Of a stretch of 64,000 nucleotides of DNA, positions 10,969 to 25,327 are shown in pieces (position 1 is the first letter of the stretch; every line of letters begins with the position of its first letter). Source of the stretch: a virus. The notes under the pieces were generated by a model. It did not search any database, was not told where the DNA came from, and was given only the letters and a program-made list of their open reading frames with translations. Location of the stretch: IMG/VR virus record IMGVR_UViG_3300020187_000010; one strand, written 5' to 3'. The position numbers and the translations under genes are program-made.

Positions 10969-12401
10969 TTGAATCTTTTACCTCTATTCTTCACGGAGTT
11001 ACCAAGTGGAGTATAACCAAATCTTGGAGATGTTTCTTTCTTGGCAATACGTCCTACCTTCGGAGGTAAAGGATTTTCCCAGTCGGATGCAATCATACCA
11101 TTCTTTATCAGTGCATCGGGGAATGAGATACCTTTCTCGTTCACGATTGTTCTGTTCGCTTCGTCTCGCATGGTAGATCGAATTTCATTTATAGTGGGTT
11201 CTTTTTCAAACAGTCCCGCATAGTCATCACGTAACAGTATATGATTGCGTATTGCATCTTTACTATCAATTGATATTGCACGTATAGACAAATGTCCATC
11301 TGACAGAAGACCTGCAACTGCATCTGTCTTAGGTATTGGTTTCAGTGGAGATAAAGATTCCATATTCTTAGGCACATCAGGCGCCCCTCCGGAGGGTTGT
11401 CCACCTTTCTCCTTGGATGCAAGTTGCGCAGTCTTCGCATTCTCTGCTTTATGCGCATACTTGGATTTGATTGCTTCGAGTGCCTGTCCATGGAAAGAAC
11501 CATAGAATGATGCACCCGAAGTAAATGGTACCGCACCTTGTGGCCCCATGTAAACAGGGCCAGTGAACTCGACTTGTTCCCCTCCAATCGCACCTTTCAT
11601 ACCAAGTACTGATATTTCAGTTGCAGAGATATTACCCTGCAATGCAGTCATCACAAATTCTTCTTCGGCAGATACATGGAAACGATTACCGGTGAACATT
11701 TCAATCTCAGCACCTACGTTATTTTTCCAATGACCTTTGATGGTACCATAACAGTTACCCAAAACAATATCTGATTTGTGTTCGACTGTCTTGTTTACCG
11801 CAGTACCTTTAGTTGTATAATTGGTGTTCAGTCCTACCGTTGTGGTGTTGTTCTTACGTATCTCGGTGTTGGTATTGCCATCAACGTTGACATTGTAATC
11901 ACCCCCAACATTGACATTATAGTCACCTGTCACTTCAAGGTTGAGGTTTCCATTATACACCAACTTACCGTTACCTTCAACAATGACAGTTTGGTCACCA
12001 CCAGTAACCTCGACCTTGTTATTGACCGCAGAGATGACCACAGACCCGTCTGCGCGGACTTCTACACCCGCACCCTTACGGTGTTTGATAAGAATACGTT
12101 CACCGCCAGGCGTGTCATCATACGAGATGATATGACCCGATGCGGTTTCTTTTACTTGGTTGAACGGGAAACGAGAAGGTTCTTGGTCTTCGAGATCCAA
12201 GTCTGTTCCTTCGGTACCACCACCAAGATAAAGATTCTCTACTTTGAGACCACGTGCAGATCTATTTAATGAAGACCCATAATGATATTCCCTTTTGGGA
12301 AATTCTCCAGTAGGATCTTGGAAACCATCAATTGGAACACCTTCGGTATTTTCAATTGCAGGATTGTCACCTATCGTTTTTTTATTTGTTGTAGTTGTCA
12401 T
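10965..12401 (-). CDS. Baseplate hub/spike, gp5 C-terminal portion (beta-helix)
   Basis: GFQDPTGEFP, FPFNQVKETASGHIISYDDTPGGERILIKHRKG, and V.G(D/N) beta-helix repeats (VTGDYNVNVGGDYNVNVDGN). Confidence 0.8.
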   Translation of the reverse strand: MTTTTNKKTIGDNPAIENTEGVPIDGFQDPTGEFPKREYHYGSSLNRSARGLKVENLYLGGGTEGTDLDLEDQEPSRFPFNQVKETASGHIISYDDTPGGERILIKHRKGAGVEVRADGSVVISAVNNKVEVTGGDQTVIVEGNGKLVYNGNLNLEVTGDYNVNVGGDYNVNVDGNTNTEIRKNNTTTVGLNTNYTTKGTAVNKTVEHKSDIVLGNCYGTIKGHWKNNVGAEIEMFTGNRFHVSAEEEFVMTALQGNISATEISVLGMKGAIGGEQVEFTGPVYMGPQGAVPFTSGASFYGSFHGQALEAIKSKYAHKAENAKTAQLASKEKGGQPSGGAPDVPKNMESLSPLKPIPKTDAVAGLLSDGHLSIRAISIDSKDAIRNHILLRDDYAGLFEKEPTINEIRSTMRDEANRTIVNEKGISFPDALIKNGMIASDWENPLPPKVGRIAKKETSPRFGYTPLGNSVKNRGKRFK

Positions 12402-14359
12402 ACGGCCTTCTTCAGTTTCAGACCATTTCGGTCTAATGATGTTTCTGTCAATGGATCTGCGTAAACAGTCTTCTTACCAAACTTGTTCTCAACAAAAGAT
12501 ATAACATCAAAGTACGGATCTTGAGATGAGATGTCAATGTCATTGTGACCGAGAACTTGACCGCCCGGAACTATCTGGTAGAATATTTCTAGAATATTTT
12601 CTAGTGTCTTCATCTGAGATATAGTGAATGAACTCGCGGACAAATTCAATAAAGGATTGTCAGCTTCGGTCGCGACATTCACACCACCTACCAAACACAC
12701 ATCAATACAGTTAAACTTGTGGCGGTTGATGTCACTTGCATCCGCAACATTATCTAAGGGTAGTCCACGTTGAAGTGTTCCGTCACGTCTAATGACCAGA
12801 TGGTATTGGATACCAACATGTCCTGCTTCGTTGTGTCTTAGTTGAATCTCTTCTGCACCAATGTTTGCATTCGTGTAGGTTTCACTTGCATGAATTACAA
12901 CCTCGGATATCTGTCGAGTCATTTTAACAAACTCTAATCCAAGTTCTTCTTTAGAGTCTATGTAAGAAAATTCTCTAATATACCCTGCGGAATATCTTTT
13001 AGAGAGTTCCAATAGATCCAAATCTTCGGTGAAGAATTCACCCGCTTCGGAGACAACACTTCCTGCTATTGTAGTATCTACTTGACTAAGTGCATTCTCA
13101 ATCTTAACAGACTGATTTTTAAAGTTTTGTAATTCGGTCTCGGATATTCCGGCAGCTCTTGCTTTACTCTGAACCTTGAGATTAAATTCTTCAACATTAT
13201 TAGCATCTGTGCCTCTAATTATTGTTTTTAATTCTGGAGATAATGTTTTATCTTTCAGTGTCAGTGCTTTGGTTGCTTTGGTGAGATTGATATCCCCGCC
13301 AGTCATGACATCGTTCATGATACCAGAGAGGAAATCTTTATCGAGTTCTTCACCTGCACCGAACAGTCCCGTAAGAATACCGCCGACCGAACCAGTCAAA
13401 TCTTCGAATAGATCTTGTGCAGTACCAAATCCTAAGTTTATATCAGAAGAAACATTGTTAACAAGATCTGTTACCGCACTTCCGATACTACTTGTAATAG
13501 CACTGAACCCATCCGAGATTATACCTTTTGCTTCATTGAGTCCAGTCTCTAATGCGGAAGTCAGTGATCCTGTCGCTGTCGCAGATGCGTTGGCAATAGT
13601 ATTACCGACACCTTCGACTGCGGATACCGCACTTGCAACTTCATCTAGTAAACCACCACTCTTTGACTTATTGGCAACTTCATCCAATTTACTCTGTACG
13701 TTCCCTATACCTTCGGTTATAGAAGCACCCAATTCATCACCACCGGCTTTGGCTTCGGATGCTGTTGTCTTGATCGAACTCAATAACGTACCTTTTCTTT
13801 CGGACGCATCTTCGATTGCACCGGCAAGTTCATCAAGTGCAGAACCACCCAATGAAACGATAGTGATACTTTCTACAGGCGGAATGATTCCTGTCAATGA
13901 TTTTGTAATCTCGGGAACAGTACTCGGTGAGTTTTCTCCGGTCTGTACTACGGTAGGTACTAATTCACCATCAACCAATTGTGTTATTGGATTACCTGCG
14001 GAATCTTCGGTAGGGAGTCCGCTCCCATCTAAGACGAATTCTTCTACCTGAGTGGCTACATTTGTCACCGTGACAATAGGAACGCCCACATCAGTTATCA
14101 TATCAGATGGATCTGTATTAGGGTATACTCCCGCAGTAGGAAGTACTTGGGACAATGAACCTGTGGTATCAGTTTTTGAATTGTTGTCTAAACTTTTGAA
14201 TCCGTTCACATCAACTTCTACATTCTTACCGAGTATAGTTGATGAATTCAGTATATTCGCATCCTGAGACTTTACGACCTGTTGATTAAGGACATTTAAG
14301 TTTGCGGTTGATGTGACCTTTGCTTTGAGACCGTCATTAAGTGTTTGGAGACTAGACAT
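12398..14359 (-). CDS. Virion-associated protein with C-terminal N-acetylmuramoyl-L-alanine amidase (Amidase_2, T7 lysozyme/AmpD-like)
   Basis: VVIHASET, IQYHLVIRRDG..QRG, VCLVGG, Q...L..L, VLGHND....QDP; long S/G/A/L-rich N-terminal region. Confidence 0.75.
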   Translation of the reverse strand: MSSLQTLNDGLKAKVTSTANLNVLNQQVVKSQDANILNSSTILGKNVEVDVNGFKSLDNNSKTDTTGSLSQVLPTAGVYPNTDPSDMITDVGVPIVTVTNVATQVEEFVLDGSGLPTEDSAGNPITQLVDGELVPTVVQTGENSPSTVPEITKSLTGIIPPVESITIVSLGGSALDELAGAIEDASERKGTLLSSIKTTASEAKAGGDELGASITEGIGNVQSKLDEVANKSKSGGLLDEVASAVSAVEGVGNTIANASATATGSLTSALETGLNEAKGIISDGFSAITSSIGSAVTDLVNNVSSDINLGFGTAQDLFEDLTGSVGGILTGLFGAGEELDKDFLSGIMNDVMTGGDINLTKATKALTLKDKTLSPELKTIIRGTDANNVEEFNLKVQSKARAAGISETELQNFKNQSVKIENALSQVDTTIAGSVVSEAGEFFTEDLDLLELSKRYSAGYIREFSYIDSKEELGLEFVKMTRQISEVVIHASETYTNANIGAEEIQLRHNEAGHVGIQYHLVIRRDGTLQRGLPLDNVADASDINRHKFNCIDVCLVGGVNVATEADNPLLNLSASSFTISQMKTLENILEIFYQIVPGGQVLGHNDIDISSQDPYFDVISFVENKFGKKTVYADPLTETSLDRNGLKLKKAV

Positions 14360-18840: not shown

Positions 18841-19346
18841 TGAAAACTTACAAAGGAAAATACAAAATCCGGAATGAATCCAAGTATCTTGGTGATCCCA
18901 AGAATGTGGTGTATCGTTCGGGATGGGAAAAGGCTGTCATGATATGGTGTGACGACAATCCCAATGTGGTTGGTTGGGTAAGTGAAGAAGTTATTATACC
19001 ATATATTTGCGAGACTGACAAGCGTCCCCATCGTTATTTCATGGACTTTATGGTCAAGTACAAGGATGGACGCACTGTACTGATCGAAGTCAAACCGCAT
19101 AAAGAGACAATCAAACCCAAGACCGGACAAGGAAGACCTCGAAGACAAGTACTTAGTGAAACATTGACATATATTAAAAACATAAGTAAGTGGACAGCGA
19201 CCGAGAAGTATGTTGCGGATAGAGGTTGGCACTTTGAAATATGGGACGAACATAAACTAAGGGCCATGGGAATTTTACCCAAACCATTAGGAAAGAAACC
19301 AATTAAACCATTGAAGAAAATGAAACCGTATAAGAGAAAGAAGTGA
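18840..19346 (+). CDS. gp4: Head completion nuclease gp4 (TnsA-like)
   Basis: YKGKY...N..KY.GDP..VVYRS.WE...M.WCD..P.V..W.SEE..IPY....D...HRYF.DF, IEVKP. Confidence 0.92.
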   Translation: MKTYKGKYKIRNESKYLGDPKNVVYRSGWEKAVMIWCDDNPNVVGWVSEEVIIPYICETDKRPHRYFMDFMVKYKDGRTVLIEVKPHKETIKPKTGQGRPRRQVLSETLTYIKNISKWTATEKYVADRGWHFEIWDEHKLRAMGILPKPLGKKPIKPLKKMKPYKRKK

Positions 19347-19945
19347 TTAACAAGAAAGTATATTTTATAGGAATGAACAAGATTGCAACCACGTCATTCC
19401 ACGAGTTATTTAAAGCATCAGGATACCGGTCATGGCATTATTCCTGCATGGACGAATTTACTGGGGAACCGTTGGTACTCGCACAACAGATGGGACAGAA
19501 TGTTGATGAAAATAAATATGTGATGAAAAGTATTGATCATGCACAGGTCTATAGTGATTTGTTTTTCCATCGTGATTATGCGTGGGTAGATGGCGTCAAG
19601 TGGTTCGACAAACTCTACAATAATAATCCAAATGCTTATTTTATATTGCAGACTCGTGATATGGAAGACTGGTTGGACAGTAAACGTAGACACAAGGACG
19701 GTGATTATATGAGACGTTGTTGTGAATATCATGACCTAGAGCCAGATGAGATGTTAGAATGGTTCCGCAATGATCGAGAAGAACATGAAGATAATGTTCG
19801 TTCTTTTTTTACAAACAAGAAGTATGCAAATTTCCTTGAATGGAACCTCAATACCGACCACATATCGAAGTTGATCAATTTCGTCAAACCAGACTTTATA
19901 CTCAAAGAAAAAGATTGGGGGCGTCATGGCAAACTATATAAATAA
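19343..19945 (+). CDS. Sulfotransferase-family (P-loop-like) protein
   Basis: KVYFIGMNKIATTSF (PAPS 5'-loop-like) and FILQTRD...WL.S (3'-phosphate-binding-like). Confidence 0.7.
   Translation: MINKKVYFIGMNKIATTSFHELFKASGYRSWHYSCMDEFTGEPLVLAQQMGQNVDENKYVMKSIDHAQVYSDLFFHRDYAWVDGVKWFDKLYNNNPNAYFILQTRDMEDWLDSKRRHKDGDYMRRCCEYHDLEPDEMLEWFRNDREEHEDNVRSFFTNKKYANFLEWNLNTDHISKLINFVKPDFILKEKDWGRHGKLYK
19937..19944 (+). promoter_or_regulatory. T4-type late promoter TATAAATA
   Basis: Exact motif 27 nt upstream of gp2. Confidence 0.75.
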
Positions 19946-19971: not shown

Positions 19972-20556
19972 ATGTCTGACATATTCAATAGATTAGAACG
20001 ACAGGCATTCCGTGCGGGTATTACACCTCGGACGAAGGAAAGTCGTGCGTGGTTTCTGAAGAAAGCACAGAATATGCGGGGTATCAATCGAGAGTCTTTG
20101 ATGAAGGAAGAACCCATCAAGGCAAGATCTAAACAGATCATTGGTGGTATGTTCATGTTTACCTATGATCCTAAACATAAAGACAAACTACCATACTATG
20201 ATGCATTTCCATTGGTGATTGTTCTTGGGCCTGCGAAGGGTGGATTCTTAGGATTGAATCTACACTATCTACCACCCAAGTTGAGGATGCAGTTCTTTGC
20301 GAACATCATGGATATCCAAGGTAGTAAGTTGAGTGAAGATGATAAGTTTTCTTTGACATATAGAATGTTAAAGAAATCTTCGAATCTGAGATACTTCAAA
20401 CCATGTGTTAAACATTATTTGAATTCTCAGGTCACCAGTCGTTTTGCGGAAGTACCTGCACCAGAATGGGAGATTGCAATCTTTCTGCCAACCGCACAGT
20501 TCCGCAAACGAAACAGTTATAAGGTTCATTACGATAGTAGGCAGATGATACGATGA
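19972..20556 (+). CDS. gp2: DNA end protector gp2
   Basis: YDPKHKDKLPYYD.FPLVI, GFLGLNLHYLPP..R, PCVKHYL, W..A.FLP. Confidence 0.92.
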   Translation: MSDIFNRLERQAFRAGITPRTKESRAWFLKKAQNMRGINRESLMKEEPIKARSKQIIGGMFMFTYDPKHKDKLPYYDAFPLVIVLGPAKGGFLGLNLHYLPPKLRMQFFANIMDIQGSKLSEDDKFSLTYRMLKKSSNLRYFKPCVKHYLNSQVTSRFAEVPAPEWEIAIFLPTAQFRKRNSYKVHYDSRQMIR

Positions 20557-21281
20557 GTGCAGGATTTTCAATCGAAGACCTAAAGGGTCAAATAGGTGGT
20601 TCAGGTGGACTTGCGAAAGCAAACCAGTTCATGGTTCAACTACCCCAACTAGAGAATTTCAGAGTAGATGCGAGAGAGTTGAATTTATTCTGTACGGTCG
20701 CTGCATTACCTGGCCGACAGATCATGAGTTTAGATCATGCGATTGGTACAACCAACCGAAAGATTGCGAATGGATATGCAACAACAGATCTGACATTGAC
20801 TTTTCTGGTTGCGAACAATCACATCATTCGTCAGTACTTCGAAGCGTGGCAGAATGAAGCACACGATCAGGTAAATCGAACTGTGGGTTATTTCGAAGAC
20901 TACACTAAAACAGTTCAGATTTCTACTATGGAAAGAGGTCTTAGATTAAGTATTGTTAAGAAACAATTAGGATTTGTAGATAAGGTACCGAGTTTCTTAA
21001 AGAATCGATTACCAAAGATAGGCCCTTTTGATCTTTCTCAAGGAGAACTTGATCTTGGTGGTTCCTTTTCTATGAAGACTACATATACATGTAACCTGTT
21101 GGAATGTTATCCAACATCATTGACTGATCAAACATTGGGTAATGGTGAAGAAGGTGTTATGGAATTGAGTGTACAATTGTCGTATACTGATTGGGAAAGT
21201 GTGGTCGGTGACTACACTAAAGAAGGTGAAGATATTGCACGTGGTGCGGTAAGCGGAGTCTTTGCAAAATTATTTGGTTAA
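20553..21281 (+). CDS. Tail tube/baseplate tube initiator (gp19/gp54 family)
   Basis: GGLAKANQF.V, LFC..A.LPG, YFE.WQ, CYPTS......L......L.V...Y. Confidence 0.7.
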   Translation: MSAGFSIEDLKGQIGGSGGLAKANQFMVQLPQLENFRVDARELNLFCTVAALPGRQIMSLDHAIGTTNRKIANGYATTDLTLTFLVANNHIIRQYFEAWQNEAHDQVNRTVGYFEDYTKTVQISTMERGLRLSIVKKQLGFVDKVPSFLKNRLPKIGPFDLSQGELDLGGSFSMKTTYTCNLLECYPTSLTDQTLGNGEEGVMELSVQLSYTDWESVVGDYTKEGEDIARGAVSGVFAKLFG

Positions 21282-21296
21282 TTATTGGAGAATATA

Positions 21297-22004
21297 ATGG
21301 CATTACCTAAGTTAAACTCGACACCACAATATAGTTGTGTTATCCCTTCAACCAAAGAGACGATTAAATATCGTCCCTATTTGGTGAAAGAAGAAAAGAT
21401 TCTAATGATCGCATTCGAGACCGGAGATCAGAAGGCTGCATTAAATGCAATCATCAATACTCTCCAAGCCTGTATCGAAGGTGAAGTTGGAGTAGCAGAC
21501 TTAACAACATTTGATGTTGAGTATTTGTTCACCCAAGTCAGATCAAGATCTGTTGGTGAGAATGCGAAGATTTTAGTCCCATGTGGTTCGTGTGGACATA
21601 AGAATGAAATTGATATTGAGTTATCAAACATCGAGATCGTGTATCCCGAGAACTTTAATTCCCGAATCGAGATCACAGATCAGGTTGCGGTAGAGATGAA
21701 GTATCCTTCATATTCAGATGTACTGTCTATGAATTTCGAGAGTGATCAGACCGAGATGGGTATGCAGATTCTTGCTCAATCCATCGATGCGATCTTGACC
21801 GAAGACGAAAGAATTTCCACGAAGGATGTGGGTAACAAAGAAGTGATGGACTTCATTGAGTCTATGACATCTGACCAATTTAAAAAGATGTCTGATTTCT
21901 TAGAGTCGATACCTTCATTGAAGAAAGAGATTAAACAACCTTGTTTGGATTGTGGAGAAACAATCGAACGAACATTGCAAGGGATTAGCGATTTTTTATC
22001 ATAA
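21297..22004 (+). CDS. gp26: Baseplate hub assembly protein gp26
   Basis: MALPKL..PQY...IPST...IKYRPYLVKEEKIL, FDVEYLF...R..SVGE, CxxC...CxxC, L.G..DF end. Confidence 0.88.
   Translation: MALPKLNSTPQYSCVIPSTKETIKYRPYLVKEEKILMIAFETGDQKAALNAIINTLQACIEGEVGVADLTTFDVEYLFTQVRSRSVGENAKILVPCGSCGHKNEIDIELSNIEIVYPENFNSRIEITDQVAVEMKYPSYSDVLSMNFESDQTEMGMQILAQSIDAILTEDERISTKDVGNKEVMDFIESMTSDQFKKMSDFLESIPSLKKEIKQPCLDCGETIERTLQGISDFLS
21992..21998 (+). other. Candidate -1 ribosomal frameshift slippery heptamer T TTT TTA
   Basis: X-XXY-YYZ heptamer in the gp26 reading frame, one codon before its stop; the -1 frame is open into the gp51-like ORF. Confidence 0.65.
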
Positions 22005-22021
22005 ACCTTTCTCACGATAAT

Positions 22022-22192
22022 TTGGTCAATCATTATAAGACCAACTTTTCGTTGATGCAACATCATCATTATAGTCTAGGTGAGTTAGATATGATGATGC
22101 CGTGGGAAAGGGAGATTTACGTTAGTATGTTAATTGATTATGTGAAGGAAGAAAACGACCGTATAAAACAAGAACAACAAAGAAATGGATAA
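22022..22192 (+). CDS. gp51: Baseplate hub assembly catalyst gp51-like (not in ORF track; probably the frameshift extension of gp26)
   Basis: LVNHYKTNFSLMQHHHYSLGELDMMMPWEREIYVSMLIDYVKEEN; no ATG before the conserved region; TTG at 22022 without a clear SD. Confidence 0.75.
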   Translation: MVNHYKTNFSLMQHHHYSLGELDMMMPWEREIYVSMLIDYVKEENDRIKQEQQRNG

Positions 22193-22198
22193 ACCAAA

Positions 22199-24376
22199 AT
22201 GGCAGAACAGAACTTAGGTAACGCGATAGAACTCCTTAGAACGGAGAACGCAAAGCAATCCGCAGACCAAGTACAGTCTACAGATCAGATCAATAAGAAC
22301 ATTGAAAAGTTCCTAAAGGGTCTGGCTGCCATGGCGGGTGACAAAGAAGAAGAGAGACGCGACAAGAAGAAAGATAAACCAGAAGGCGCTGTAGGGTTTA
22401 AGAAATCTGATATCACCGGTGGTTTCGGATTGGCTGGAATGGTCGGTGGTATTCTTGCAGCAGTTACAGGATTTGCGGTAGGTGTAGTAGATGCCTTCAA
22501 ACGACTCCTGAGTAACTTGATTCCTAAGTCTATCAAGAATGCATTTAAGAATTTGAGTAATGCATTTAAGGCAGGAACGAATGGTGTTAAGGGTCTGTCT
22601 AAAGCTGCGAATGGCGCTTTCCGATCACTCAACACTATAGAAAAGGGTATTCGTGCATTAGGTGTTGGATTCCAGTTTGCAGTCGATAAGTTAAAATCTG
22701 CGGGTAAATTAATCCAAGGCGGTTTCCTCAAAACAGTTAATGGGATTAAGAGTGCTATACTTTTCCTCGCCAAACCTTTCATTGCAATCAACAAGGCATT
22801 TAGTGGGGCACAAGGTGGTATTGGTTTCCTTTCAAAAGCAAGTGCAACCATAGGAGAATTCTTTAAGGGTATTGGAACCAAGATTAAAGGTTTCACTGAC
22901 CTGTTCGGTAAGTCAGGATTCCTCGGTAAAATCTTTAATGTGTTCCGAGCACTAGGAACCAAGATTCCTGTTATCGGTCAGATCATCGCTGGTGTGATGG
23001 CAATCTTCGATGGTTTCGGTGACGCGGCCAAAGAGGTTGGTGGTTTCGGTAGTAAAATAATCAGATTCCTTACTTCTGGAATAGGTACATTCTTTGGTGT
23101 AGTGATTGGTGGTATCGGAGATCTTGTCAAGTGGGCTGTGAGTAAACTTGCGGGTTTATTTGGTCTTGATAAAGTAAGTGCATTTCTAGACTCGTTTTCA
23201 TTCGAAGAAATAATCATTGATATGTTCGATAGTCTTGGTACTATGTTGATTGATGCTAAAGACTTTGTAGTTGGTGCCTTTACCGGTGGGTTCGACAATT
23301 TCATGTCTAAATTACCAACTATGATTAAAACTGTTCTTGACTATACAATATTTGCGATACCCACTCTTTTGTCCAAAGCTGCACAATTTATTGGTGATGC
23401 GCTTGGTTTTGATATGAGTATGTTAGATGGTTTCAGTCCAACACAATATTTAATAGATATGATGGCATCTGTCACAAAAGTTGTTTCAGATTCATTTAAC
23501 TGGATCGTTGATAAAGTTACCAACTTTGATTTTGGTGCAGCACTAGGTGCAGCACTTGATTGGGGTCATGAGATGATGATGAAATTAAAAGGCATCATCG
23601 CAGGTATTTTACCAGACGCAGATTCATGGGCAGGTAAACTGATTCCAGATGCGGTCTATGATTATGTGAATGAAGCTCCACCTAAACCAGTAGAGAAAGC
23701 AAAGGAAGAACCAGTCGCACAAATGGATTTGGGTGAAGATGCGCCTGGCGCATTGACTCAAAAAGACGTTATCGGTATTAGTGCAGAAGAACAAGCATCC
23801 AACGTTGTATCACTCGAAGCTGCACGTGCCGGAGATACTTCAGTTGGTGATGACCTAGACTCGATATCTGTCACTCCCAAGGAGATGAATGAGGTAACTA
23901 AACAGTTCATCAAAGATATGGAAGATCCCCAATGGATGGCTGAGGCAGCGGAAAAACGCAAGAAGCGTGAAGAAGACTTCGCAAAAATGGAAGAGGGATC
24001 TAAGAAGGCACGACTATCCAGAGAAGAAAAACTTGCTGTCATGAAAGAAAAACGTGATGCAAGGATGTTGGAAAGAGAAAACAAATACCGCGCAATGAAA
24101 GAGTCCGGTATGAAGGACGGCGAGAAACTTTCAGCCGACCAATTAGGACAGGTTGATCGTAGTCTCGAAAGAATTGAAGCAATCAAAAAGTATCGTGGTG
24201 TGGATGTTGATAATATGTCTAGAGAGAATGCACGTTCTAGTGGTGGAAACGCAGTCACAGTAGTTGCACCATCTTCACAGAACGTGACAAACAATACCAA
24301 TCAAAGTACTGCTGCGATTATGTCACAGAATCAACCGACAGTTGATCAGAACGATAGGACTTATGCTGTAGCATAA
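22199..24376 (+). CDS. Probable tail tape measure / gp29-like baseplate hub protein
   Basis: 725 aa, G/A/F/K-rich amphipathic helical repeats, hydrophobic segments, follows gp26/gp51, C-terminal NAVTVVAPSSQNVTNN. Confidence 0.65.
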   Translation: MAEQNLGNAIELLRTENAKQSADQVQSTDQINKNIEKFLKGLAAMAGDKEEERRDKKKDKPEGAVGFKKSDITGGFGLAGMVGGILAAVTGFAVGVVDAFKRLLSNLIPKSIKNAFKNLSNAFKAGTNGVKGLSKAANGAFRSLNTIEKGIRALGVGFQFAVDKLKSAGKLIQGGFLKTVNGIKSAILFLAKPFIAINKAFSGAQGGIGFLSKASATIGEFFKGIGTKIKGFTDLFGKSGFLGKIFNVFRALGTKIPVIGQIIAGVMAIFDGFGDAAKEVGGFGSKIIRFLTSGIGTFFGVVIGGIGDLVKWAVSKLAGLFGLDKVSAFLDSFSFEEIIIDMFDSLGTMLIDAKDFVVGAFTGGFDNFMSKLPTMIKTVLDYTIFAIPTLLSKAAQFIGDALGFDMSMLDGFSPTQYLIDMMASVTKVVSDSFNWIVDKVTNFDFGAALGAALDWGHEMMMKLKGIIAGILPDADSWAGKLIPDAVYDYVNEAPPKPVEKAKEEPVAQMDLGEDAPGALTQKDVIGISAEEQASNVVSLEAARAGDTSVGDDLDSISVTPKEMNEVTKQFIKDMEDPQWMAEAAEKRKKREEDFAKMEEGSKKARLSREEKLAVMKEKRDARMLERENKYRAMKESGMKDGEKLSADQLGQVDRSLERIEAIKKYRGVDVDNMSRENARSSGGNAVTVVAPSSQNVTNNTNQSTAAIMSQNQPTVDQNDRTYAVA

Positions 24377-24399
24377 AAAAAGGGGGACTTGCGTCCCCC
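24375..24399 (-). terminator. Rho-independent terminator after gp32
   Basis: GGGGGAC-N4-GTCCCCC hairpin followed by T7 on the - strand, between convergent genes. Confidence 0.85.
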
Positions 24400-24406
24400 C
24401 GTGTTA

Positions 24407-25327
24407 CTAGTCTTCTTGTGCCATCTGCGCAAAGTAAGATAGTGTGTCATCTTCCTCCGCGACAGCACCTACCGTTGGTGCAGGAGCAGAAACAATCTCA
24501 GGTTGTGGTGCAGAACGTCCAACGTTCGCTTCCGCAGTCTGAGTTAATGCTTCATTACGGATGGTGGTGTTAGCACCTACCGCAGTACCCAATACCAATT
24601 CCAGACGTGACTCTAATTCCTGATAGGTTTTAAAGTTAGCAGGATCTACGAACTCACCCAAGTCATACTGTTGATTATAAGTGGCTTCGAGTTTAGTCTC
24701 GTCCGACTCATACAATGCAGAAGTGGACTTGAACTCCGACTTATCATAGTTACGGTAACCCGCAACATTACGAATCTTCAGTTCGAAGTCAGCACCATTC
24801 CAAAAATCAAATGGGTTGATAGGAGTTTCGCCAGGGAATTGTGGTTGCATCAGATCCATGATTTTGTCAAAGATCTTCTTACCAAACTCATAGTAAAATA
24901 CTTTACCATTGTTCGATGGGTTTGCAGGATCGTTTACCACAAGTATATTAGACACGTAGTGAAGACGGCGCTTCTGTTTACGTGCAGTTTCTTTGTCATC
25001 TTCGATACCCGAGTTCCACAGACGTGAATTCAGTTCGGATACAGGATCCTTCTGACCGATGGTAGTCAACGATTTCTCGATGTACCATTGACCTTGAGGG
25101 CCTTTGAATCCGTGATCCCAATATCGTACCCAAGGCATATCTTGACCTTCCATTGCAGGAAGGAAACGGACTACTGCGTAACCATTGCCGTTATCATCAA
25201 CGGTTGGTTTCCACTTACGTTCGTCATCGTACTTATTGGTTTTGGTGTTAGTACCAGATGCTTCTTGAGCGGCAGATACTAATTTAGAAATGTCGGTAGA
25301 ACGACTTTTTAGGTTTGCAAAAGACAT
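24407..25327 (-). CDS. gp32: Single-stranded DNA-binding protein gp32
   Basis: DERKWKP..D..GNGYAV.RFLP, HGFKGP.GQWYIE.SLTT.G..DPV, FGKKIFDKI, FDFW.GADF.LK, NYDKSEF, acidic tail. Confidence 0.95.
   Translation of the reverse strand: MSFANLKSRSTDISKLVSAAQEASGTNTKTNKYDDERKWKPTVDDNGNGYAVVRFLPAMEGQDMPWVRYWDHGFKGPQGQWYIEKSLTTIGQKDPVSELNSRLWNSGIEDDKETARKQKRRLHYVSNILVVNDPANPSNNGKVFYYEFGKKIFDKIMDLMQPQFPGETPINPFDFWNGADFELKIRNVAGYRNYDKSEFKSTSALYESDETKLEATYNQQYDLGEFVDPANFKTYQELESRLELVLGTAVGANTTIRNEALTQTAEANVGRSAPQPEIVSAPAPTVGAVAEEDDTLSYFAQMAQED

Follow-up and report, generated by a model that had tools for sequence, protein, structure and literature searches.

In phage lambda, a conserved −1 frameshift in the tail assembly chaperone genes yields gpG and gpGT, as summarized in a review drawing on earlier work (Levin 1993; Xu 2004, 2013, 2014; via PMC5009743). 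That review treats G-T frameshifting as a conserved feature of long-tailed phages "except T4" (Atkins et al., 2016, PMC5009743). The T4 proteins gp26 (208 aa) and gp51 (249 aa) are chaperones of baseplate hub assembly, and gp51 is needed for assembly and absent from the particle (Leiman et al., 2010, PMC3004832).

The window analyzed here is a 64,000-nucleotide stretch of DNA (IMG/VR record IMGVR_UViG_3300020187_000010) from an uncultured marine/estuarine T4-like phage. The nearest deposited genome is that of C48C1 (Kyanoviridae), with 42% identity in gp26. The gene order is a tube-like gene, gp26, gp51 and a long ORF, and the locus contains the following features.

20553..21281, + strand: tail-tube-like gene 5′ of gp26 (phrog_45 'tail tube', E 1.4e-30)
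21297..22004, + strand: gp26 ORF encoding the short product (ATG 21297, TAA 22002-22004, 235 aa, 0 frame)
21979..21983, + strand: purine-rich AAGGG (Lys/Gln-Gly codons), 8 nt 5′ of the heptamer, a possible Shine-Dalgarno-like stimulator
21986..21988, + strand: TAG closing the −1 frame just 5′ of the heptamer
21992..21998, + strand: slippery heptamer T_TTT_TTA, in the gp26 frame and in X_XXY_YYZ phase
21998..22192, + strand: −1 extension, the 'gp51' segment (64 aa plus stop)
22002..22004, + strand: gp26 stop codon, one codon past the heptamer
22014..22052, + strand: local RNA hairpin (dG −13.5 kcal/mol, z −3.5), beginning 15 nt past the heptamer
22199..24376, + strand: 725-aa ORF, candidate tape measure at the gp29 position, by position and size

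The gp26 gene is preceded by a GGAG 6 nt 5′ of its ATG at 21297 and ends in GGG ATT AGC GAT TTT TTA TCA TAA. The −1 frame is open from 21989 and terminates at TAA 22190-22192. Its first TTG is found at 22022 and its first ATG at 22055, and its conserved block begins at 22007. The initial annotation had described this gp26 end, the in-frame heptamer and the preceding −1 stop, all of which were borne out base for base. It had further placed the conserved block ahead of any ATG, which holds, and the start of the tape measure at 22199, which is the start of the 725-aa ORF, a candidate tape measure.

We propose that a programmed −1 ribosomal frameshift at U_UUU_UUA very likely produces both gp26 (235 aa) and a 298-aa gp26-gp51 fusion from this locus. 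Most ribosomes would terminate at the gp26 stop and release the 235-aa protein, while on a fraction of them the P-site tRNA-Phe and the A-site tRNA-Leu would re-pair one base back. Slipped ribosomes would read ATC 21998 next, the first −1 codon after the slip, and add 64 more residues (IINLSHDNLVNHYK...). The predicted fusion consequently comprises 234 + 64 = 298 aa, with the junction ...GISDFL|IINLSHDN... and a predicted junction-spanning tryptic peptide TLQGISDFL-IINLSHDNLVNHYK.

This layout resembles lambda G/GT in that the first ORF carries a slippery heptamer a few codons short of its stop, a start-less second ORF follows in the −1 frame, and a short and an extended product are made (predicted in the window). 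Similarly, both gene pairs are flanked by a tube-like gene on one side and a long ORF on the other, and the chaperone fold resides in the N-terminal domain. In contrast to lambda, the heptamer of the window family is U_UUU_UUN instead of G_GGA_AAG and the T4 counterparts of the window proteins are assigned to baseplate hub assembly. The window gp26 and gp51 have no detectable sequence similarity to the lambda proteins, and gp26, at 235 aa, is the larger protein and also contains a second domain and two CxxC pairs. No lambda-type chaperone is known to possess this second domain or the CxxC pairs.

Conservation of the slippery site

To follow the junction through T4-like relatives, as suggested in the initial annotation, we surveyed 84 related loci, consisting of 80 IMG/VR loci (gp26 identity 36-100%) and four cyanophage genomes. 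The heptamer, the −1 phase and protein conservation 5′ of start codons were all kept. In 84 of 84 loci, a T_TTT_TTN heptamer precedes the gp26 stop at a distance of two to three codons and gp51 occupies the −1 phase. The loci represent 59 distinct junctions and, at 55% identity, 23 lineages, and the run of six T's (T6) is invariant in 59/59 junctions and 23/23 lineages. Chance is not the explanation, because across the 59 distinct junctions six nucleotides in a row are invariant only at T6. The same layout is found in Aeromonas phage Aeh1, the KVP40-like phage phi-pp2, Sinorhizobium phage phiM9 and the Stenotrophomonas Menderaviruses, as well as in freshwater phage BUCT-ZZ01, C48C1 and the long-tailed S-CREM2. 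Overall, the two-frame layout spans several phage families and both isolates and metagenomes of many studies.

Codon usage around the T-run is constrained in the phase of the heptamer. The preceding codon is AAT in 20, AGT in 17, GAT in 14, TCT in seven and GCT in one of the 59 junctions. Its wobble base is thus always T while the encoded residue varies; elsewhere in gp26, T-ending codons make up 31-75% for these residues. The first Phe codon is TTT in 59/59 junctions compared with a background of 71%. The last heptamer position (Z) is T in 34, C in 20, A in three and G in two junctions, and this freedom to vary is expected if only the re-pairing of two tandem tRNAs matters. The one conserved neighbor of the heptamer is the near-adjacent stop codon of gp26, located one codon past the heptamer in 47/59 junctions and directly after it in 12/59.

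In-frame fused singletons are rare (P0001 and P0003). When the fused singleton P0003 was searched against 1.84 billion representatives, the match stopped at the FF junction for nearly all of the top 150 hits, and a single fragment among them crossed it. That nearly all of these matches end at the junction argues that the gp26 stop is under selection. Judged from these sequences, a gp26 stop is the norm and permanently fused genes are rare.

Elements that might stimulate slippage are less uniform than the heptamer itself. AAGGG or GAGGG is located 8-9 nt 5′ of the heptamer in most lineages and is missing from some, and the Gly codon before the heptamer is GGR in 36/56 junctions compared with 37% elsewhere in gp26. 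A role of the upstream AAGGG as an internal Shine-Dalgarno-like stimulator is suggestive only, because the element is not present throughout and the Gly residue is itself conserved. The hairpin at 22014-22052 is found in close relatives and not kept across the family, making a stimulatory role doubtful, and RNAalifold predicted no conserved downstream pairs on 25 diverse junctions. In E. coli dnaX (tau/gamma), a −1 frameshift on a homopolymeric heptamer with a downstream hairpin truncates the protein. The window family shares with dnaX the −1 shift on a homopolymeric heptamer and possibly a Shine-Dalgarno-like element ca. 8-10 nt upstream (AAGGG in the window). It differs in that no conserved structure is present, the Shine-Dalgarno-like element is missing from some lineages and the protein is lengthened by the shift.

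Coding constraint on the extension and its T4 counterparts

The extension is conserved as protein upstream of its possible start codons. In the window, the −1 ORF matches phrog_634 ('baseplate hub assembly catalyst', gp51) with E 6.4e-28 from residue 3 onward, well 5′ of TTG 22022 and ATG 22055, and also matches the C-terminal end of phrog_150 (profile positions 231-276). In nearly all 84 loci, the similarity to gp51 sets in at residue 1-2 of the −1 ORF (residue 5 in L029), and a conserved motif, LSHDxLxNHYKTNF, is found 5′ of the first ATG. Across the 59 junctions, extension residues L4, H6, L9 and F17 are 98-100% conserved and S5, D7, N11, Y13 and N16 are 83-97% conserved, with each conserved residue within positions 4-17 encoded by two to six synonymous codons. 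The first ATG falls at extension residue 19 or beyond in 57/59 junctions and the first ATG, GTG or TTG of any kind does so in 39/59. Residues 1-3 are highly variable and contain one of these codons in 5/59 junctions. Conservation through synonymous codons indicates that residues 4-17 are translated, and because in nearly all junctions no standard start precedes them, they must be reached by a shift from the gp26 frame. The heptamer, its −1 phase and this constraint 5′ of start codons together support the frameshift originally suggested for the locus.

Database records give little sign of this arrangement. Consistent with the initial statement that gp26 and gp51 are usually annotated separately, gp51 is recorded as a truncated stub (34-39 aa), given an internal or stop-overlapping ATG start, or left unannotated. 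The C48C1 record gives a 34-aa stub, and gp51 is unannotated in S-CAM4-type cyanophages and Aeh1.

L094:2283-2387; L002:2474-2651; L086:2739-2904: under-annotated gp51 loci (C48C1, S-CAM4-type, Aeh1)

T4-type phages (Mosigvirus; Acinetobacter AbTZA1) transcribe genes 26 and 51 divergently. T4-type gp51 (250 aa) consists of a PF12322 domain (residues 1-201, E 4.6e-59) and a phrog_634 segment (residues 147-248), and covers the whole phrog_150 profile. In alignments, T4-type gp26 and window gp26 end at the same ...FF/FL position while the tail of T4-type gp51 pairs with the window −1 extension. By sequence alignment, T4-type gp51 is therefore colinear with the predicted gp26-gp51 fusion. T4-type gene 26, which has gene 51 as a separate gene, ends in GAA TTC TTT GAG or GAA TTT GTC GAG, and neither the heptamer nor a T6 run is present at this 3′ end. 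The two systems thus share the family PF12322 and the ...FF end of gp26. They differ in that the two forms are encoded by two divergent paralogous genes lacking a heptamer in T4-type phages and by one gene with predicted recoding in the window. The best explanation, in which we place considerable confidence, is that the short form is the counterpart of T4 gp26 and lambda gpG and the long form that of T4 gp51 and lambda gpGT.

Alternative explanations and exceptional lineages

Two groups of records depart from the common layout. A gp51-like −1 ORF without a T6 heptamer is found in ViI-like phages (Ackermannviridae) and Vibrio phage D504, where the junction reads GAR ATT TTC ATT TAA or similar. 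LIMEstone1 and D504 possess a TAATG stop-start overlap, with ATT at that place in the others. In this group, gp51 is followed by a terminator and then gp5, with no long ORF. As judged from its junctions, the ViI-like lineage may use the gp51 peptide unfused, made alone or by another route.

L088:2780-2960; L091:1490-1660; L092:1430-1600; L096:1400-1640: ViI-like/D504 loci

The record of Stenotrophomonas phage IME-SM1 (L090:2690-2700) contains T5 and has gp51 in the +1 frame, whereas Mendera, Moby and 13 other records contain T6 at this position. We considered IME-SM1 as a true phase exception and rejected it, the record being one base short of all 15 relatives. The T5 is probably a homopolymer error in the record, and the missing T accounts for the annotation of a 280-aa 'gp26'.

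The same fusion could in principle arise by transcriptional slippage, in which RNA polymerase adds one U at the T-run in some mRNAs. The site is a homopolymer, T-runs of seven to eight are present in 34/59 junctions and one inserted base would yield the same product. However, the window and 24 other junctions contain only T6, the base after the sixth T being A, G or C in these 25/59 junctions, while known bacterial transcriptional slippage sites are typically A/T runs of about nine or more. RNA-library contigs from two studies also bridge the site with the genomic T6 and no indel, an observation that excludes majority editing only, because contigs drop rare variants. We infer that slippage is ribosomal, the favored reading, and regard a transcriptional origin as unlikely. 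A sequencing or assembly error at the homopolymer, or a recent frameshift mutation splitting one gene, could likewise mimic a two-frame gene. Homopolymer errors do happen, as in the IME-SM1 record, and rare in-frame fused singletons exist, but the recurrence of the layout in 23 lineages, several phage families, isolates and metagenomes makes artefact or decay an almost negligible prospect. The window stretch is moreover recovered at 95-100% of words in 14 DNA runs, with no indel in the one examined.

A further explanation dispenses with fusion altogether: gp51 could be translated alone from TTG 22022, ATG 22055 or the near-cognate ATC/ATA at 21998-22003, or by reinitiation, with the T-run conserved for some other reason. 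Annotators do call separate small ORFs, an ATG overlaps or adjoins the gp26 stop in Mendera, phiM9, LIMEstone1 and Vibrio phage D504, and the ViI-like phages lack the heptamer. Yet L4, H6 and L9, conserved at ca. 100% with synonymous variation, are located 5′ of both TTG 22022 and ATG 22055. A standard start is found in extension codons 1-3 in 5/59 junctions, and 57/59 have no ATG before residue 19. Separate translation would also leave the wobble-T constraint and the loss of the T-run in T4-type gene 26 unexplained, and we consider it very improbable. Programmed ribosomal frameshifting accordingly remains our preferred reading.

Chaperone fold, neighboring genes and the T4 superfamily

The window gp26 belongs to the T4_baseplate family PF12322 (E 8.7e-56, 189.5 bits against a gathering cut-off of 24.5, residues 10-234) and matches phrog_150 with E 1.4e-58. 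The structures of gp26 and the extension were modeled as separate parts. The AF2 model of gp26 has a pLDDT of 88 and a pTM of 0.81. When it was compared with 48,161 PDB representatives, the best matches were 3fgx, 3klu and 2ob9 with Z-scores of 7.7, 7.4 and 7.2 over 85-86 aligned residues, followed by the next match at 4.9; these Z-scores are moderate and cover gp26 residues 1-~95 only. Foldseek paired gp26 with 2ob9, the HK97 tail assembly chaperone (gp13), at a probability of 0.72. All three structures are treated as tail assembly chaperones (PMC9603447). The comparisons support an N-terminal domain that, in the model, folds like the HK97 tail assembly chaperone. The extension is modeled as three helices with a pLDDT of 79, and a Foldseek search with it returned no meaningful match.

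The rest of gp26 consists of a second domain and two CxxC pairs. The four Cys are invariant and located at C96/C99 (21582-21593) and C216/C219 (21942-21953), the second pair being missing in a cyanophage subgroup (P-TIM40, P-SSM2, P0003). The two pairs suggest a zinc ribbon joining distant parts of gp26. Weak structural matches of the gp26 model to zinc-ribbon proteins were also observed.

The syntenic gene upstream of gp26 is annotated as gp54, the baseplate tail tube initiator, in Aeh1, phi-pp2 and phiM9. A scan of 20400-24600 gave a promoter-like count no higher than that of shuffles and no terminator-like site between gp26 and gp51. Further upstream on the + strand, a 200-aa ORF at 19343-19945, flanked by the genes for gp4 (head closure) and gp2 (DNA end protector), matched no PHROG.

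For the 725-aa ORF downstream of gp51, no match was found in Pfam (to E 10), NCBIfam, PHROGs or by tblastn against phages, and no similarity to T4 gp29 is detectable. PF25671 detects true T4-type gp29 and does not detect the 725-aa ORF or its Aeh1 and KVP40-like counterparts. The ESM Atlas links the ORF to a T4_Tape_measure cluster with a score of 0.94, which serves as a lead only. The ORF is a candidate tape measure. In S-CREM2, which has a tail of ca. 418 nm, the two ORFs after gp51 encode 1565 and 1456 aa (L101:11937-21008). Both proteins are abundant in the virion and annotated 'endolysin', and the S-CREM2 paper names no tape measure. Tape measures span ca. 0.15 nm per residue, and the ca. 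3000 aa of the two S-CREM2 ORFs would roughly match the tail length at this value. Their sizes fit a length-determining role for ORFs after gp51. Elsewhere in the window, a 652-aa ORF (12398-14359, − strand) adjoins gp5-N-like, gp27-like(?), wedge and gp48 genes. It gave weak tape-measure PHROG matches (phrog_305, E 1.9e-9, residues 97-347) and ends in an Amidase_2 domain. It is a second candidate for a tape measure, or for a tail-lysin protein.

The proposal in the initial annotation that gp26 and gp51 are the G and T halves of a tail assembly chaperone gains support from the chaperone fold, the gene order and T4-type gp51 as a colinear long form. This support is less direct than that for the frameshift, and any binding functions are presumed. 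Both forms would most likely act outside the virion, as chaperones that help to assemble the baseplate hub, tape measure and tail tube. The published table of S-CREM2 virion proteins lists neither gp26 nor gp51, which is weak evidence for a non-virion role.

A full-text search of the literature found no report of a gp26/gp51 frameshift site. What is new is a conserved tail-chaperone frameshift, as predicted here, in a gene family that earlier work had not connected with it. On balance we lean towards seeing in the gp26/gp51 junction the G/GT-type chaperone frameshift that the T4 superfamily seemed to lack, replaced in T4 and its close relatives by two paralogous genes. On that reading, one gene with a −1 slip would be widespread, extending over Kyanoviridae, KVP40- and Aeh1-type Straboviridae, Pootjesviridae and Menderavirus. 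The two separate T4 genes may be the reason why T4 is listed as a frameshift exception. If this is true, hundreds of deposited T4-like genomes need re-annotation of gp51, now a 34-65 aa stub or uncalled, and T4 gp51 acquires a testable function. The T4 superfamily would then be no exception, most members frameshifting and T4 proper using duplicated genes, and would offer a natural comparison of recoding and two genes as ways of fixing the ratio of short to long chaperone.
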